A DNA stretch of 25,845 nt from Myxococcales bacterium (lineage in GTDB: Bacteria; Myxococcota_A; Polyangia; Polyangiales; Ga0077539): assembly GCA_016792845.1 (NCBI GenBank), contig JAEUKH010000043.1:1-25845 (forward strand), read 5' to 3'. A program made the translations under genes and the position numbers. Positions 2,717 to 8,543 of this stretch are shown in pieces. The notes under the pieces are model-generated. The model saw only the letters and a program-made list of their open reading frames with translations. It was not told the DNA's origin and ran no database searches. Each line of letters opens with the position of its first letter. Positions within the stretch are counted from its first letter, which is position 1.

Positions 2717-3559
2717 ATGGTCGCGACCGCAATGCTTGAACACCGCAAGATCGCCTTTGTGGGCGCGGGCAACATGGCCGAGGCGCTCATCCGTGGGATG
2801 CTCGCCGCAGGCGCCGTTCGCCCTGAAAACGTAGTGATTTCGGGTCGTCGCCGCGACAAGATCGAGCGCACCGCAGAGCGCCTCGGGGTGCGCGCCGCGG
2901 CCGACAACGCAGACTGCGTGCGCGACGCCGACGTGGTGATGCTGTGCGTGAAGCCGCAGGTGATGCGGGGCGTGGTCGAAGGCATCGCCCGCGAGCTCCG
3001 GGCCGACGCGCTGGTGGTGAGCGTCGCCGCGGGCATCGCGACCCGGGCCATCGAGGCGCCCTTCGCGGCCACCCAGCGGGTGGTGCGGGCCATGCCCAAC
3101 ACGGCGGCGGTGGTGCGCCAGAGCGCCACGGCCATCGCCGCGGGGGCCCACGCCAGCGACGACGACCTCGCCATCGCCAAGACCATCTTCGACGCGGTGG
3201 GGCGCACCGTGATCGTCGACGAGTACCACCTCGACGCGGTCACGGGGCTCTCGGGCAGCGGCCCTGCGTATGTGTTTTTGATCATCGACGCCCTCGCCGA
3301 CGCGGGGGTCAAGGTGGGGCTCTCGCGCGACGTCGCGCTCGAGCTCGCCGCCCAGACGGTGATGGGCTCGGCGCAGATGCTTCTGCACACCGGCGAGCAC
3401 CCGGGGCGGCTCAAAGACCAGGTCACGAGCCCCGGGGGCACGGCCATCGCGGGGCTTCACACCCTCGAAGCGGGGGGCCTGCGCACGACGCTCATCAACG
3501 CCGTCGAGACCGCCACCCGACGCGCGCGGGAGCTCGGCGATGCCCACGCCGCCAAGTGA
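2717..3559 (+). CDS. proC: pyrroline-5-carboxylate reductase
   Basis: KIAFVGAGNMAEAL (Rossmann fold), MPNTAAVV, VTGLSGSGPAYVF and VTSPGGTAIAG are classic ProC blocks. The alternative start ATG 2732 (MLEHRKIAFVG...) matches the usual ProC N-terminus better. Confidence 0.9.
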   Translation: MVATAMLEHRKIAFVGAGNMAEALIRGMLAAGAVRPENVVISGRRRDKIERTAERLGVRAAADNADCVRDADVVMLCVKPQVMRGVVEGIARELRADALVVSVAAGIATRAIEAPFAATQRVVRAMPNTAAVVRQSATAIAAGAHASDDDLAIAKTIFDAVGRTVIVDEYHLDAVTGLSGSGPAYVFLIIDALADAGVKVGLSRDVALELAAQTVMGSAQMLLHTGEHPGRLKDQVTSPGGTAIAGLHTLEAGGLRTTLINAVETATRRARELGDAHAAK

Positions 3560-4730
3560 GCCGCCCGGGGTGACGGCCGACCGAGAGGGCGCCCCGGAGG
3601 CCTCGCAGGGGTCTGGCCTGGGGTCTGGCCTGGGGTCTGGCCTGGGGTCTGGCCTGGGGTCTGGCCGAGGGCTGGTCACGGCGGCCGGGGTCGCGCTGGT
3701 GCTCGGCGCCGCGGCGGTGTTCGGCGCGCTGTGGGTGCCGATGGTGTTCGCCCTGTGGACGGCCGCTCTCCTCACCCCCCTGCACCGCTGGCTCGAAGCG
3801 CGCCTCGGCGGTCGCACCGCGGCGGCCACGGTGCTCGAGCTCGTGGCGGTGATGTCGCTGCTCGTGCCCTTGGTCTTCCTGGTGCTCTTGGTGGGCACCG
3901 AGGCTGCGGGCTTCGCGCGTCGCATCGTGGCCTCGCCCGCGGCGCAGGTCGCCCTCGAAGCGATGGTCTCGGCCGACCCGACGCAGAGCCCGCCGGGGCC
4001 CGTGTCGGGCGCCATCGCGATGCTCCCGGCCGCGCTTCAGCGCTTGGGCGCGCCGGTGATCGAGCGGGTCGCGGCGCTCCTCTCAGAGCACGGCGCGACG
4101 GCGTGGAGTTGGGCCGCGAGCGCAGCGGGGGCAGGGGCGAGCCTCACCCTCGATTTCGTGATCTTCGCGGTGACGCTCTTCGCGGTGCGCACCGAGGGCG
4201 ACGCGGCGTGGGCTTGGGCGCGCGCGCACGTGCCGCTCGGGCCCGAGACCCTCGACCGGCTGGCCCGAGCCTTCACCGAGACGGGCCGCGGGATCTTCAT
4301 CGGCGCGGGCCTCACGAGCCTCGCCCAGAGCCTCTTGTCGATGCTCTTTTACGCCGCCCTCGGCGTGCCGCGGGTGGTCGTCTTGGGGCTCCTCACCTTT
4401 GTCGCGGCCTTTGTGCCTGCGGTGGGCACCGCCGTCGTGTGGGGCCCCGTCGCCCTCGGCCTCGCCCTCACCGGACACCCCGGCAAGGCCCTCGCCCTCG
4501 CCCTCCTCGGCGCCTTCGGCGTAGGCTCCATCGACAACCTCACCCGCCCGCTCTTCCAGCGCTGGGGCGGAAACCTCAAGCTCCCCGCCTCGGTGCTCCT
4601 CTTCGCGGCCTTCGGCGGCCTGAGCCTCTTCGGCGCCAAAGGCCTCTTGCTCGGCCCACTTCTCGTGCGCATGGCCCGCGAGGTGATCGAAATCGCGCGC
4701 CCCGCGCCGCCCTCAACGCCGCCAGGTTGA
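3540..4730 (+). CDS. AI-2E family transporter (PerM/YdiK-like, UPF0118) with a low-complexity N-terminal extension
   Basis: Multi-TM protein. The C-terminal half (AFVPAVGTAVVWGPVALGLALTG...GVGSIDNLTRPLFQ) is typical of AI-2E/UPF0118 transporters. The ATG at 3540 overlaps the proC 3' end by 20 nt, so the true start may be further downstream (for example an in-frame GTG). The N-terminus contains a (GSGL)n repeat. Confidence 0.7.
   Translation: MPTPPSEPPGVTADREGAPEASQGSGLGSGLGSGLGSGLGSGRGLVTAAGVALVLGAAAVFGALWVPMVFALWTAALLTPLHRWLEARLGGRTAAATVLELVAVMSLLVPLVFLVLLVGTEAAGFARRIVASPAAQVALEAMVSADPTQSPPGPVSGAIAMLPAALQRLGAPVIERVAALLSEHGATAWSWAASAAGAGASLTLDFVIFAVTLFAVRTEGDAAWAWARAHVPLGPETLDRLARAFTETGRGIFIGAGLTSLAQSLLSMLFYAALGVPRVVVLGLLTFVAAFVPAVGTAVVWGPVALGLALTGHPGKALALALLGAFGVGSIDNLTRPLFQRWGGNLKLPASVLLFAAFGGLSLFGAKGLLLGPLLVRMAREVIEIARPAPPSTPPG
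3608..3667 (+). repeat. 12-bp perfect tandem repeat (GGGTCTGGCCTG) x5 inside the transporter N-terminus
   Basis: Read directly: four perfect units plus one degenerate unit. It is in frame (a multiple of 3) and encodes GSGLGSGLGSGLGSGLGSGRG. Confidence 0.9.
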
Positions 4731-4982
4731 ACACCGTTCAACTCCGCGCAAGCCCTCTCCTCTCGCCCCCGCTGCGCCTTTGTTGAACACCGTTCAACAC
4801 GCACCGTCTCGGCCCCCGGTGCGCCCTTGTTGAACACTGTTCAACACGCACCGTCTCGGCCCCGCTGCGCCCTTGTTGAACACCGTTCAACACTCCGTCT
4901 CCGTCACCGCTTCGTCGGCGCGCAGCCCCGCGGTGAGGCCCACTCGCTCCGCGCACCCCGCGCCTGTTGAACACTGTTCAAC
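4726..4982. repeat. array of five copies of the 17-bp perfect palindrome GTTGAAC-AC(C/T)-GTTCAAC embedded in ~45-56 bp tandem units
   Basis: Palindromes at 4726-4742, 4782-4798, 4829-4845, 4875-4891 and 4966-4982. Units 2-4 share the flank gcgcccttGTTGAACACCGTTCAACacgcaccgtctcggcccc. The palindrome is only about 41% GC in a window of 70% or more. The TGA stop of the upstream transporter (4728-4730) lies inside the first copy. Confidence 0.9.
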
Positions 4983-5136
4983 TTCGGCCTGAGCCTGCAT
5001 CGATCGGCTCTCTCGGGCATCCCCTCGCCCGAAACAGAGACACAACGCCCCGACCGTGGCACACGCGCCACCTTGTGGTTCGGGGCCCTGGCGACAACAC
5101 TACCGGCCTTCTGCACGGCCCGAAAGGACGCTACCC

Positions 5137-5625
5137 ATGCCACCACCGCACCACGAACGGCCTCCGCCACCGAGGCATCATGCCCCGGGTGACGCCCTCG
5201 CCGACGACCCCCGTCTTGACGACGCGCTTCGGAGCCTCGTCGACGACCCGGGCGCCCGTCGCTTCGTGCTTCGTTGCCTCGTGGGAGAGGGCCCGCAGCA
5301 TCACCGCGCGTCGAATCAGGTGTTGGTGCTCCTCTTGGCCGAGCTCGTGGCGCGTCTCGACGGGGCGCGGCCGCTCGACGCTTCGGGCCCTCAGCTCGCG
5401 GTGGCGATGCGCCTGCCGCCGCACCTTCGGGGCGACCGCGACGACCAGCGCTACCCGATCTCGGTGCCCCGCGCGGTGCTCGAACGCCTCTCAGATGACC
5501 CCGCCGCCGTCGACGCGATGGCCAGGGCGGTGGTCGACGGGCCGCCCCAGCACGCCGTCGCCAACGTGGTGATGTTGGGGCTCCTCGCGCAGTGCCTCGC
5601 GGCGCTTGAGGGCCGCCCCGCGTGA
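5137..5625 (+). CDS. hypothetical protein (Pro/His-rich N-terminus), first gene of a coupled three-gene operon
   Basis: ATG 5137 is preceded by AAAGGA 9 nt upstream. There is strong GC3 bias through the second half. Its stop TGA overlaps the GTG start of the next gene (GTGA). No family recognised. Confidence 0.5.
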   Translation: MPPPHHERPPPPRHHAPGDALADDPRLDDALRSLVDDPGARRFVLRCLVGEGPQHHRASNQVLVLLLAELVARLDGARPLDASGPQLAVAMRLPPHLRGDRDDQRYPISVPRAVLERLSDDPAAVDAMARAVVDGPPQHAVANVVMLGLLAQCLAALEGRPA

Positions 5626-6251
5626 GCGACCCGTCGCTGGCCATGGCCTTCTCGGCGGCGGCCGGAGAGCTCGGCATGAGCGCGGCGTCCTGGCTCTTTC
5701 TGCGCACCCTCGCGGCGGTCGAGGCGGGGGCCGAGGAGGCCGCGATCGAGAGCCTGGGGGCGCAGTTTCCGGTGATGGCGGCGGTGGGCGCGGCGTGGCG
5801 CGAGGGGCACCGCGGGCCGCGGTGTGACCTTGAGGGTGTGCGGGCGCGGCTCGACGGCGTCACCCGGGCCGTGGTGCTCGGGGTCGAGAGCGCACACCTC
5901 GACGCGCTCGTCGCGGCCTCGCCGGGGCTCGAACTCGGGCTCGTCACGGAGTCTCCGCTTGAGGCCGATTTCGAGCGCATCTTGGCCAACTTCGGGGGCC
6001 GCGTGGCCGCCGTCTCGCTCGCCGAATTGCAGCGCTGGAGCGGCGCGACGAGCGCCCTGGTCACCTTCCTCTACGGGGTCGACTCGCACGCCACGCAGGT
6101 CAGCCCCATCTGGCTCCGGGCCGTCGGCGACGACACCCGCACCCAGTTTCGCACCCTCCTCGGGTGGAACGTCTTGCCCGCCCCGATGCCCGTCTACCCC
6201 CGCTGGCTCGTCGAGGTCGCCCTCGACGCCTTCACCGACGTGGTGCCCTGA
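5622..6251 (+). CDS. hypothetical protein, second gene of the coupled operon
   Basis: GTG start at 5622 overlaps the preceding stop. Very strong third-position GC bias. Its stop TGA 6249-6251 overlaps the ATG of the permease (TGATG). No family recognised. Confidence 0.55.
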   Translation: MSDPSLAMAFSAAAGELGMSAASWLFLRTLAAVEAGAEEAAIESLGAQFPVMAAVGAAWREGHRGPRCDLEGVRARLDGVTRAVVLGVESAHLDALVAASPGLELGLVTESPLEADFERILANFGGRVAAVSLAELQRWSGATSALVTFLYGVDSHATQVSPIWLRAVGDDTRTQFRTLLGWNVLPAPMPVYPRWLVEVALDAFTDVVP

Positions 6252-7576
6252 TGAGCCTCGCCTTCGCGGGCATCCTCCTCGCGGCGCTGATCGCCCAGGC
6301 CCTCTGGCCCGGCGCCCGCCTCAGGGTGGTCGTCTCGGGCGCGGCGCTGAGCTGCCTTCTGGCCTCGCTTCGCGGCGTGAGCACCACGGCCCGGCTCTTC
6401 GCGGCGGTCCCGTGGGACGTCTTGACGATCCTCGTGGGCCTCGGGGTGGTCACCGAGGTGCTCGTCGCCTCGCGGCTCTTCTCGCTCATGGCCGTTCGGG
6501 TGACCCGGGCCACCGGGGCCCGACCGTGGCGCTTCGCGCTCACCTTCGCGTTGGTGATGTACGTCGTGAGCGGCCTGGTCAACAACCTCACGGCGCTCCT
6601 CCTGGTCTTGCCCGTGATGCTGGTGGTGTTTCGCGTCCTCGGGGTCACGCAGCGCTTCTTGTCGCTCACATTGGGGCTCTTGCTGGTGGCTTGTAACCTC
6701 GGCGGCGCCGCCACGCCCATCGGAGACTTCCCCGCGATTTTGCTCCTCGGTCGTGGCGCGATGCGCTTCGGGGTCTACCTCACCGCGGCGGCCCCTCGCA
6801 CCGCGCTGGCCCTCGCCCTCGTGGTGGTCGCCCTCTCGTGGCGCCGTCAAGCGAGCCCCCGCGACGGCACCGAGGCGCTCAGGGCCGCGCTCACGGTGAA
6901 CACCCTCGAAGCCCTCCACCGCGGCATCCGCATCGACCGCAGGTACCTCTTGCCGGGCGCGGCGGCCCTCGCGGCGATGCTCCTCGGGTGGGTCTTGATC
7001 CCCGCCTCGACGGGCATCGGCCCCGAGCTCATCTGCTGGCTCGGCGCCGCCCTGAGCCTCCTCGGCGCCGGAAAGGTCGGCGAGACCATCGCCCGCCGCC
7101 GCGTCGACGTCGAGGCCGTGCTCTTCCTCCTCTCGCTCTTCGTGATGGTGGGCGCGGCCCGCGAGAGCCACCTCTTCACCGACATCGCCCGCTGGCTCAC
7201 GGCGCTGCCCCTCTCGCCCGCCGCGCAGGTGGTGGTCTTCCTCGTCGCCGCGGCGCTGCTCACGGGCGTCTTCAGCGCGGGGCCGAGCATGGCGGCGCTC
7301 CTCGACGTCGCCGACGCCCTCGCCCGGCAGCACCCCCGCGAGGCCCGCGACGCCCTCTACGTGGGCCTCGCGATGAGCGTCTGCGCGGGCAGCTCGCTCT
7401 TCCTCACCGCCGCCACCGCAGGGCCCCTCACCCAGAGCCTCATCGAACGCGCGGGCCTCCGTGGCCCCGACGGAGAGCCCCTCCGCTTCGGCTTCCGAGA
7501 GTACCTCCCGGTCGGCCTCGTGGCCTTCGCGCTCATCCTCTCGGTGGGCATCGCGAGCACCCTCGCCGCCCTCTGA
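6251..7576 (+). CDS. ArsB/NhaD-superfamily permease (anion/arsenite-type ion transporter family)
   Basis: Multi-TM protein. The blocks GLVNNLTALLLVLPVMLVVF and VDVEAVLFLLSLFVMVGAARESHLFTDIARWL align by eye with E. coli ArsB (FANDGAALILTPIVIAML and [32 protein letters not shown]). The ATG at 6251 is chosen over the upstream TTG at 6164 because of the start/stop coupling. Confidence 0.7.
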   Translation: MSLAFAGILLAALIAQALWPGARLRVVVSGAALSCLLASLRGVSTTARLFAAVPWDVLTILVGLGVVTEVLVASRLFSLMAVRVTRATGARPWRFALTFALVMYVVSGLVNNLTALLLVLPVMLVVFRVLGVTQRFLSLTLGLLLVACNLGGAATPIGDFPAILLLGRGAMRFGVYLTAAAPRTALALALVVVALSWRRQASPRDGTEALRAALTVNTLEALHRGIRIDRRYLLPGAAALAAMLLGWVLIPASTGIGPELICWLGAALSLLGAGKVGETIARRRVDVEAVLFLLSLFVMVGAARESHLFTDIARWLTALPLSPAAQVVVFLVAAALLTGVFSAGPSMAALLDVADALARQHPREARDALYVGLAMSVCAGSSLFLTAATAGPLTQSLIERAGLRGPDGEPLRFGFREYLPVGLVAFALILSVGIASTLAAL

Positions 7577-7597
7577 CGGCCCCTCGCCGACACCGCC

Positions 7598-7712
7598 CAC
7601 GCGCGGCGTGTTGAACACCGTTCAACTTCAGCGACCCGCCCACGCGCGGCGTGTTGAACACCGTTCAACTTCAGCGACCCACCCAGGCGCGGCGTGTTGA
7701 ACACCGTTCAAC
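7598..7712. repeat. three tandem 43-bp units, each containing the same 17-bp palindrome GTTGAACACCGTTCAAC
   Basis: Palindromes at 7610-7626, 7653-7669 and 7696-7712, with a period of exactly 43 bp. The unit is cacgcgcggcgtGTTGAACACCGTTCAACttcagcgacccgcc. The array begins 22 bp after the permease stop. The stop (TGA on the minus strand, 7708-7710) of the convergent gene lies inside the last copy. Confidence 0.9.
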
Positions 7713-8433
7713 TTGCGACGCCGAGGTCGATGACCCAGGCCTCGGGAGCCCACCGGCGCCAGGTCTCGGCCGGGAGGTTCACCCACGACGACGCGCGGTC
7801 GATCACCAGGCCGTCGGCGCTGGCCACGCAGCCGGCTCCGACGAGCGCCGTGTCGGCGTCGCGCACCATCTCGACCCGGGCCGCACACCCCTGCGCGCGG
7901 GCCCCCTCGCAGGCCGCCTCGCAGAGCGCCCGCACGCGGCCCGAGTTGCTCACCGGCGCGTCGATCCACAGGGTGATCGCGGCCGCCCGGGCTTCGAGCA
8001 GGCAGCGCACCAGCCAGTCGATCGCCGCGGCCGAGTCGTCGACGGTGCGGTAGCTCCCGCGGAGCCCGCAAAGGTCGCGGAGCGCGCCGTCGCGGCCCAC
8101 AAAGCTCGGAGCCCCGCCGCGCAACACCTCAAGGCTCACGAGCGTGTTGAAGAGGTCGACGTCGACCCGCTCACCGCCGAGCGACGCGAGCCCGCGACGG
8201 GTCTTCGCCCGCGAGACGCAGCCCGCGTCGTCGACGCTCATGCGCGACACCGCGAGGCGGGCCCGGGCGTGGAGCTGGTGATGGTCGCCCGCCGCCCGCA
8301 CCGCCGCCTCGCGGGGGTACCCCCGTGACAAGAGCCACGACACCTCTTCGACCGCCGCGCGCAACGCGGGCCGCGAGGCGGTCGAGAAGTGCGAGGCGTC
8401 GTCGGCGTCGGCGCCGCGTCGTCGGTCAGACAT
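7708..8433 (-). CDS. hypothetical protein (weak resemblance to DUF434/DUF5616-type proteins, not verified)
   Basis: Start ATG 8433 (MSDRRRGADADD...). The longer ORF back to 8532 adds an unlikely Arg/Pro-rich leader. Good GC3 bias. Contains SWLLSRGYPREAAV and ITLWIDAPVSNSGRVRAL blocks. Confidence 0.5.
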   Translation of the reverse strand: MSDRRRGADADDASHFSTASRPALRAAVEEVSWLLSRGYPREAAVRAAGDHHQLHARARLAVSRMSVDDAGCVSRAKTRRGLASLGGERVDVDLFNTLVSLEVLRGGAPSFVGRDGALRDLCGLRGSYRTVDDSAAAIDWLVRCLLEARAAAITLWIDAPVSNSGRVRALCEAACEGARAQGCAARVEMVRDADTALVGAGCVASADGLVIDRASSWVNLPAETWRRWAPEAWVIDLGVAS

Positions 8434-8543
8434 GGGGCTCGGAGGGTGGCAGAGGTGACCGGGCCGCGCACCCTGCAAAGCGGGCTCGAATTGTCGCGCG
8501 GCGCGCTTGCATGAGGGCCCGACGGCACGCACGCTCTCGGGCC

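Follow-up and report, generated by a model that had tools for sequence, protein, structure and literature searches.

Units that carry short inverted repeats are known from several bacterial systems. In sopC of the F plasmid, tandem 43-bp units each hold a 7-bp inverted repeat that is recognised by a helix-turn-helix (HTH) protein. The attC sites of integrons are imperfect palindromes of 57-141 nt, with L''/L' sites and extrahelical bases, that end in the core sites R'' (RYYYAAC) and R' (GTTRRRY). Repetitive extragenic palindromes and bacterial interspersed mosaic elements (REP/BIME) form intergenic palindromic tandem units in proteobacterial chromosomes, including between convergent genes, and synthetic tetO and lacO arrays or decoy sites line up many identical repressor sites able to titrate the repressor or block polymerase. 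Here we analyse a stretch of 25,845 bp from a Myxococcales bacterium (contig JAEUKH010000043.1 of assembly GCA_016792845.1; hereafter the window), in which a 17-bp palindrome is repeated on both sides of a three-gene operon made up of the open reading frames (ORFs) ORF1 and ORF2 and a gene for a CitMHS-family permease.

The palindrome also resembles a repressor operator. BioQ, a TetR-type repressor of Corynebacterium glutamicum, is described as binding a 13-bp TGAAC-N3-GTT(C)A palindrome (PMC9210681, citing Brune et al. 2012). The palindrome studied here has the same half-site and spacing, with the geometry of a site for a dimeric HTH protein, and the TGAAC-N3-GTTCA core is contained in all eight copies. 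Adjacent pairs of operators occur naturally in this type (as at the Terrabacter locus L009 and at L132), whereas the present locus has groups of five and three copies at the two ends of an operon, carried on 43-47-bp units, with no regulator gene within 25.8 kb and no link to biotin genes. We hypothesize that copies of a TetR-type operator accumulated at the two ends of the operon through local tandem duplication, in one Myxococcales lineage only, a reading on which our confidence is evenly balanced. The finding itself is real and non-random: the sites are perfect and locally restricted, and in other genomes their sequence is tightly linked to the starts of TetR genes. What would be new is an operator array in place of a single or paired operator.

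Eight palindromes at the two ends of one operon

A search of the window that allowed up to two mismatches returned eight matches to the 17-bp palindrome GTTGAACNNNGTTCAAC, all perfect, all on the plus strand and all of the form GTTGAACAC(C/T)GTTCAAC, with one shared orientation that includes the asymmetric centre ACY. The chance expectation for GTTGAACNNNGTTCAAC is 0.02 (maximum 1 in 100 dinucleotide shuffles). Five copies lie upstream of the operon, starting at 4726, 4782, 4829, 4875 and 4966 (4726-4982), and three downstream, starting at 7610, 7653 and 7696 (7610-7712); they occupy two of the approximately 15-20 intergenic regions of the window, precisely those that flank the three-gene operon. 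No further copy was found in 26.3 kb, that is, in the window (with up to two mismatches) and the 0.4 kb beyond it, and even the half-sites are nearly confined to the arrays, which hold 8 of the 10 occurrences of TTGAAC and 8 of the 9 of GTTCAA in the window. A preliminary description of this DNA, made from the letters alone, had reported eight perfect copies near the operon and nowhere else in the window, and the mismatch-tolerant count bears this out. Its estimate of 70% GC or more for the genome agrees with the 71.9% of the window, and its figure of about 41% for the motif holds for the form with an ACT centre (41%) but not for the form with an ACC centre (47%).

Copy 1 (GTTGAACACCGTTCAAC, 4726..4742) holds the TGA stop codon, at 4728-4730, of the upstream AI-2E transporter gene. 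Copy 2 (4782..4798, ACC centre) is the first of a series of 46-47-bp tandem units, followed by copy 3 (4829..4845, ACT centre) and, in the last tandem unit of the upstream array, copy 4 (4875..4891, ACC centre). Copy 5 (4966..4982, ACT centre) stands isolated, 154 nt 5' of the ORF1 start codon, and is the likeliest candidate for a promoter-proximal operator. Together with its flanks copy 3 makes up a perfect 19-bp palindrome, TGTTGAACA-C-TGTTCAACA (4828-4846); both ACT copies sit in such a longer palindrome (4828-4846 and 4965-4983), of the form TGTTGAACA-C-TGTTCAAC(A). On the other side of the operon, the same motif search places copy 6 at 7610..7626, copy 7 at 7653..7669 and copy 8 at 7696..7712; the convergent DUF434/DUF5616 gene ends within the last of these, with its stop codon at 7708-7710.

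Tandem Repeats Finder resolves these copies into an upstream array at 4761..4893 (period 47, 2.9 copies, 92% matches) and a downstream array at 7588..7714 (period 43, 2.9 copies, 96% matches), both given on the plus strand, the latter taking up nearly all of the 131-nt gap that separates the convergent genes. The preliminary description had seen five upstream units of about 46 bp and three exact 43-bp units downstream, and each statement is correct in part. The clean upstream tandem array consists of copies 2-4 only: copy 1 is placed 56 bp upstream of copy 2, across a spacer that is partly related, and copy 5, 91 bp past copy 4, follows an unrelated one. Downstream, the identity is 100% between two of the units but 84% for the third.

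There are thus four flank contexts (copy 1, tandem units 2-4, copy 5, and the downstream units), and in each of them the arms are perfect at all 14 positions, or 112 of 112 positions over the eight copies, while the spacers differ from context to context; beyond the 17-mer, the spacers of the two arrays and those of copies 1 and 5 are unrelated or weakly similar. Since the arms are perfect while the spacers are unrelated, the palindrome behaves like a protein-binding site under selection, and the earlier suggestion that selection maintains it as such gains from this as well as from the linkage to TetR genes elsewhere (below). The same evidence bears on the possibility that the arrays are neutral minisatellites, which replication slippage would have produced from one palindrome, operator-like or arisen by chance, and whose copies would serve no function of their own. 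Very recent duplication is indicated by the two identical downstream units, the spacers of the upstream tandem units are about as conserved as the palindromes themselves, and a polymorphic 12-bp tandem repeat lies nearby (3608-3666). Against slippage of this kind stand the perfect arms in four unrelated flank contexts, the AT-rich 17-mer kept eight times in 72%-GC DNA and the two separate arrays that flank one operon, and we consider it very unlikely. Strain variants from other sequencing runs have single-nucleotide polymorphisms (SNPs) in the neighbouring genes and an identical upstream array, a point that also speaks against neutral repeats; this invariance is weak evidence and says little, because only about two SNPs are expected across the region.

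The main alternative, which we hold to be unlikely but the foremost of those considered, is that the units are members of a REP/BIME-like repeat family, palindromic and dispersed through the genome, and act at the level of RNA or DNA structure (as protection of mRNA 3' or 5' ends, or as gyrase or IHF sites) and not as operators. Tandem, palindrome-bearing, intergenic units, one set of them in the gap between convergent genes, are typical BIME anatomy, and the single orientation, which includes the asymmetric centre, suggests copying from a common source and not independent origins. The arrays nevertheless differ from REP/BIME elements in their weak, AT-rich stem, in conservation that is limited to the 17-mer, and in being found at a single locus within the available sequence: no further copies occur in the 26.3 kb, only the two intergenic regions around one operon are occupied, and the flanks beyond the 17-mer are not common to both arrays. 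Each palindrome could form a hairpin with a 7-bp stem and a 3-nt loop (about -11 kcal/mol with flanking pairs; z-scores of -0.9 and -2.6 for two single units), which is weak for a 72%-GC genome; neither a stable stem-loop in the transcript nor a conserved unit beyond the palindrome was found. Logan assemblies break at the downstream array, as they would at a dispersed repeat, but in these k=31 assemblies the exact 43-bp duplication is the sole breakpoint, and it accounts for the break by itself; because they cross the upstream array unbroken, the longer upstream units are not repeated elsewhere. Rfam gave no match at E<=1, and neither array holds an intrinsic terminator (a GC-rich hairpin followed by a T-tract); with these two negatives and the weak AT-rich hairpins, we reject a role at the RNA level.

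The outermost copies do contain the TGA stops of the flanking genes, as had been observed (4728-4730 for the AI-2E gene and 7708-7710, on the minus strand, for the DUF434/DUF5616 gene), and from this it had been proposed that the segment is a discrete inserted unit whose ends redefine the neighbouring gene termini. Each palindrome has one TGA per strand, so that an ORF that enters it stops there in one of three frames, and stops are otherwise rare in 72%-GC DNA. Because of this one-in-three frame chance and the scarcity of stops otherwise, stops inside the palindromes are weak evidence for redefined gene ends. We find no support for an inserted unit: there is no recombinase or transposase, the composition is like that of the surroundings, and frame chance can explain the stops.

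The palindrome in other genomes

Exact copies of the 17-mer were sought in GTDB species genomes with the query GTTGAACACYGTTCAAC, which gave at least 110 loci (800 kb), a sample and not a census, and the 110 loci listed were then searched in six frames with a TetR hidden Markov model (HMM) built from 120 homologues. These loci contain 21 TetR-like ORFs, and in every case the 17-mer lies no more than 50 nt from the 5' edge of the ORF; random positions gave a mean of 0.67 TetR-linked loci, with at most 4 in any of 1000 trials. Orthologous loci from Terrabacter/Dermatophilaceae account for many of the 21; there are still at least four independent contexts among the loci listed, namely TetR_N+TetR_C_1 proteins in Terrabacter/Dermatophilaceae, a Paenibacillus TetR, a TetR_N-only protein at L099, and TetR_N+TetR_C_33 proteins in metagenome-assembled genomes (MAGs) of Myxococcota and Pseudomonadota. 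At least two subfamilies are represented, TetR_C_1 (Terrabacter/Dermatophilaceae and Paenibacillus) and TetR_C_33 (the Myxococcota and Pseudomonadota MAGs). In the TetR loci the site lies 16-50 nt from the start codon, and two actinobacterial matches lie upstream of bioY and bioB, in keeping with the likeness to the BioQ operator.

Within the Myxococcota TetR_N+TetR_C_33 group, all five members examined keep the site or a variant of it, with one or two mismatches, upstream of the gene, in surrounding DNA that has diverged. The full palindrome precedes P0022 (L038), P0027 (L079, 67% identity) and P0025 (L134-136, 66%); P0023 (L142, 78%) has GTTAAACAGTGTTCAAC, with one mismatch, and P0029 (L132/133, 54%) has two degenerate copies 31 bp apart. 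Judged by this pattern of conservation, the upstream site is the phylogenetic footprint of a putative autoregulatory operator. It is because of this footprint, the linkage of 21 out of 21 TetR-like ORFs and the BioQ-like core that we read the arrays as multiplied TetR-type operators. Of the several roles listed for the arrays at the outset, that of an operator array fits best, with the 17-mer at the 5' edges of TetR genes elsewhere.

The related Myxococcota MAG loci examined have the palindrome singly or as one adjacent pair upstream of genes, with no REP arrays among them, a distribution that argues against a REP/BIME-like family. Pairs are also seen in Actinobacteria: at L009 (6036-6068) and the orthologous Terrabacter loci, in more than 10 species, two abutting copies (GTTGAACGGTGTTCAAC-TTGAACGGTGTTCAG) stand upstream of a gene for a TetR_N+TetR_C_1 protein, probably an uncharacterised autoregulated TetR with a double operator. 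Because the Terrabacter upstream regions hold two adjacent copies, paired operators can be taken as normal for this type of site. In a Sandaracinaceae MAG (L050, 7560-7592), a 27-bp palindrome, CTCTGTTGAACAGTGTTCAACAGAG, is found directly 5' of a flavin-monooxygenase-like gene, with no TetR gene in the stretch that was fetched; this gene probably belongs to the regulon of a repressor of this kind in an organism related to the source. At L111 (6645-6681) the same core occurs in a long terminator-like hairpin, a perfect 37-nt palindrome (CAAGACGCGGGTTGAACAGTGTTCAACCCGCGTCTTG) located 3' of a LysM/YkuD L,D-transpeptidase gene.

In unrelated metagenomic organisms the same palindrome does occur as the basis of dispersed arrays, and these count in favour of a REP/BIME-like origin. 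Six JGI contigs (Ga0307987-9; L116, L117, L119, L123, L124 and L125) from an organism of 31-35% GC carry arrays of a highly conserved 62-bp unit, each with GTTGAACAATGTTCAAC, placed at contig ends and on either side of 2-3-kb gene segments; on L125, for example, arrays at 148-350 and 3086-3164 flank a gene for a TPR lipoprotein and a second gene. No TetR gene was found on these contigs, and the arrays look like a dispersed family of repeats that share this palindrome. A second case is found at 69% GC (L118, MRWG01003153.1, 1686-1850), where genes for an acyl-CoA dehydrogenase and a TauD-family dioxygenase flank two 53-bp units, each with GAAGTTGAACGCAGTTCAACTTC (10-bp arms), making this a second high-GC duplicated unit upstream of a gene. 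A metagenome scan for paired motifs returned 12 contigs, none related to the source organism, and a viral scan returned none. A literature search on the sequence string found primers only.

The operon, its orthologues and possible binders

The operon consists of three co-directional, overlapping genes on the plus strand. ORF1 (5137..5625, 162 aa) matches no Pfam or NCBIfam family and belongs to a conserved family of 81 homologues, one of them from a Burkholderiales MAG. Its predicted structure is a confident all-alpha model with no DNA-binding fold and no fold match in the PDB, so that by this model ORF1 may represent a new small fold family; the protein contains a duplicated, near-invariant motif, E/D-G-P-x-x-H-[HA]-x-A-N, at residues ~51-60 and ~134-143. 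ORF2 (5622..6251, 209 aa), also without a family, belongs to a group of 21 proteins whose source-named members come from Myxococcales MAGs, and is identical to the NCBI protein MBL8604655.1 ('MAG: hypothetical protein JNK72_22205 [Myxococcales bacterium]'), which is encoded on a 227-kb contig. The ORF2 model (predicted local distance difference test score, pLDDT, of 95) shows a helical N-domain and a Rossmann-like domain, again with no DNA-binding fold, and its fold match to eIF2B/ribose-1,5-bisphosphate isomerase is weak. The third gene (6251..7576) encodes the CitMHS-family permease (441 aa), whose best NCBIfam similarities are to MamN-like proteins and NhaD, both far under the cut-offs.

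Pfam scans identify the neighbours as the AI-2E family transporter gene (3540..4730, plus strand), preceded by proB and proC, and the convergent DUF434/DUF5616 gene (7708..8532, minus strand). The neighbourhood in the window is chromosomal and of housekeeping type, with proB, proC, an S1-domain (rpsA-like) protein and a succinate dehydrogenase cytochrome b-type subunit. In the 5' part of its coding sequence, the AI-2E gene contains a perfect 12-bp tandem repeat, GGGGTCTGGCCT, in 4.9 copies at 3608-3666. In the strain variants L001, L137 and L138, 36 bp (three units) of this repeat are missing and many nearby positions differ, and for these reasons we regard it as a polymorphic in-frame coding minisatellite.

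Five other loci (L128, L129, L139, L140 and L141) preserve the ORF2-CitMHS pair; of these, L128, L139, L140 and L141 also have ORF1, not detected in L129; the full three-gene cassette is called on one further JGI contig as well (gene calls only). The cassette spans 9525-11992 in L128, 4757-7205 in L139 and 6120-8587 in L140, compared with 5137-7576 in the window. Across these Myxococcota-like MAGs its neighbourhood is different in every locus, and it often adjoins genes of osmotic-stress type: otsA/B-like genes (trehalose synthesis), MscS, Na+/H+ exchangers, OpuA-type ABC transporters and CLC channels, or, in the present case, proB/proC. This company suggests a role of the cassette in ion or osmolyte transport, with two putative accessory proteins. 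Neither the palindrome nor any upstream array is present in any of the five orthologous cassette loci; the arrays are specific to the source lineage among the cassettes examined.

These orthologues are relevant to the idea that the cassette regulates itself, with ORF1 or ORF2 as the protein that binds the palindromes. The sites bracket exactly the operon that contains these two genes, neither of which has an assigned family, and the preliminary description had put both proteins forward for binding assays. Set against this are the confident models without a DNA-binding fold, ORF2 with its weak resemblance to eIF2B/ribose-1,5-bisphosphate-isomerase-like Rossmann proteins, and the five orthologous cassettes without palindrome or array. 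We consider self-regulation highly improbable, and on predicted structures and orthologous loci we reject the operon proteins as binders.

Slimmer still are the prospects of a plasmid-type centromere or iteron array (sopC- or parS-like) or of attC-like sites that mark a mobile cassette. The downstream array does share with sopC its 43-bp tandem units with a 7-bp inverted repeat in each, and both arrays are of this general build (43-bp x 2.9 and 47-bp x 2.9). Unlike sopC, the locus is chromosomal, with a housekeeping context and a composition that is not anomalous, it lacks partition genes, it has three units plus a second array of another period, and it shows no plasmid homology: a search of 72,556 plasmids with the upstream array region (4700-5000) found nothing similar, and none of the viral contigs scanned had paired motifs. 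Pfam scans of 27 window ORFs found no ParA/ParB or other partition gene, no Rep gene, no tyrosine recombinase or integron integrase and no transposase, in agreement with the earlier remark that the segment contains no ParA/ParB, integrase or transposase gene. A centromere or iteron role, for which that description had pointed to a likeness with sopC, accordingly finds no backing in gene content, neighbours or plasmid matches. For integrons, the arms fit the core-site consensus GTTRRRY / RYYYAAC, and the cassette lies in different neighbourhoods in different genomes, as a mobile cassette would; yet the arms are 3 nt apart (26-30 nt across neighbouring copies), the alternative reading across copies gives units of 40-44 nt, shorter than any known attC, and there is neither an Rfam match nor an integrase, so attC sites are rejected. 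A LexA box was also considered and rejected, as several positions in the left half do not fit the Myxococcus consensus (CTRHAMRYBYGTTCAGS).

A proposed multiplied operator and its possible function

We infer TetR-type binding in the source organism, repression of the operon and, if it has one, a role for the downstream array, along the following lines. The 17-bp palindrome would be an operator of TetR-family type, with the core TGAAC-N3-GTTCA, the extended form GTTGAAC-N3-GTTCAAC and the ideal form TGTTGAACA-N-TGTTCAACA. Its eight copies would bind a dimeric HTH repressor encoded outside the 25.8-kb window, and the sites would have been multiplied in place by tandem duplication of 43-47-bp units, so that the ORF1-ORF2-CitMHS operon would have come to be tightly repressed from several upstream sites. 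The three sites downstream would most plausibly serve as extra repressor-bound roadblocks or as a local repressor reservoir, or they may be by-products of duplication.

Several observations weigh against this reading. A six-frame HMM search of the window and the 0.4 kb beyond it found no TetR-like ORF. The 120 best relatives of the Myxococcota TetR include none traceable to the source MAG; a single named one comes from a Myxococcales MAG, which is a different assembly, and the nine further NCBI-sourced hits looked up have no accession in the range of the source MAG's MBL8604655.1. The source MAG may be incomplete, or the binder may belong to a different TetR subfamily or to another HTH family. 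No sigma-70-like promoter is predicted in 4500-7900, and the site nearest to the ORF1 start codon, at 154 nt, is farther away than the 16-50 nt seen in the TetR loci and than is the case for BioQ-type operators. The centre-to-centre spacings (56, 47, 46, 91, 43 and 43 bp) show no consistent helical phasing. To our knowledge, natural arrays of five plus three operators in 43-47-bp units correspond to no described TetR arrangement, and a regulatory role for the downstream array is conjecture.

A more far-reaching form of the operator hypothesis, which we think quite unlikely, is that both arrays jointly form a natural operator array, generated by minisatellite expansion of an operator, in which several repressor dimers, bound at the two ends of the operon, would loop the 2.6-kb unit or insulate it from transporter read-through and from the convergent gene, or which would act as a chromosomal sponge that sets the free level of a TetR-type regulator. 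It would be a natural counterpart of synthetic tetO arrays and decoys, from which the present arrays differ in being natural and small, with a putative role in titration or as a roadblock.

As it stands, the analysis assigns a candidate operator, GTTGAAC-N3-GTTCAAC, to the uncharacterised TetR_N+TetR_C_33 group of Myxococcota, and it draws attention to a conserved three-gene transporter cassette often found near osmotic-stress genes. If multiplication of a TetR-type operator is the correct explanation, the locus would be a natural case of a transcription-factor site multiplied by tandem duplication, recruiting an operon into a regulon in a single lineage. It would also offer a testable case for the effects in vivo of operator multiplicity and of sites at the 3' end of an operon, including cooperativity, roadblocking of convergent transcription and repressor titration.

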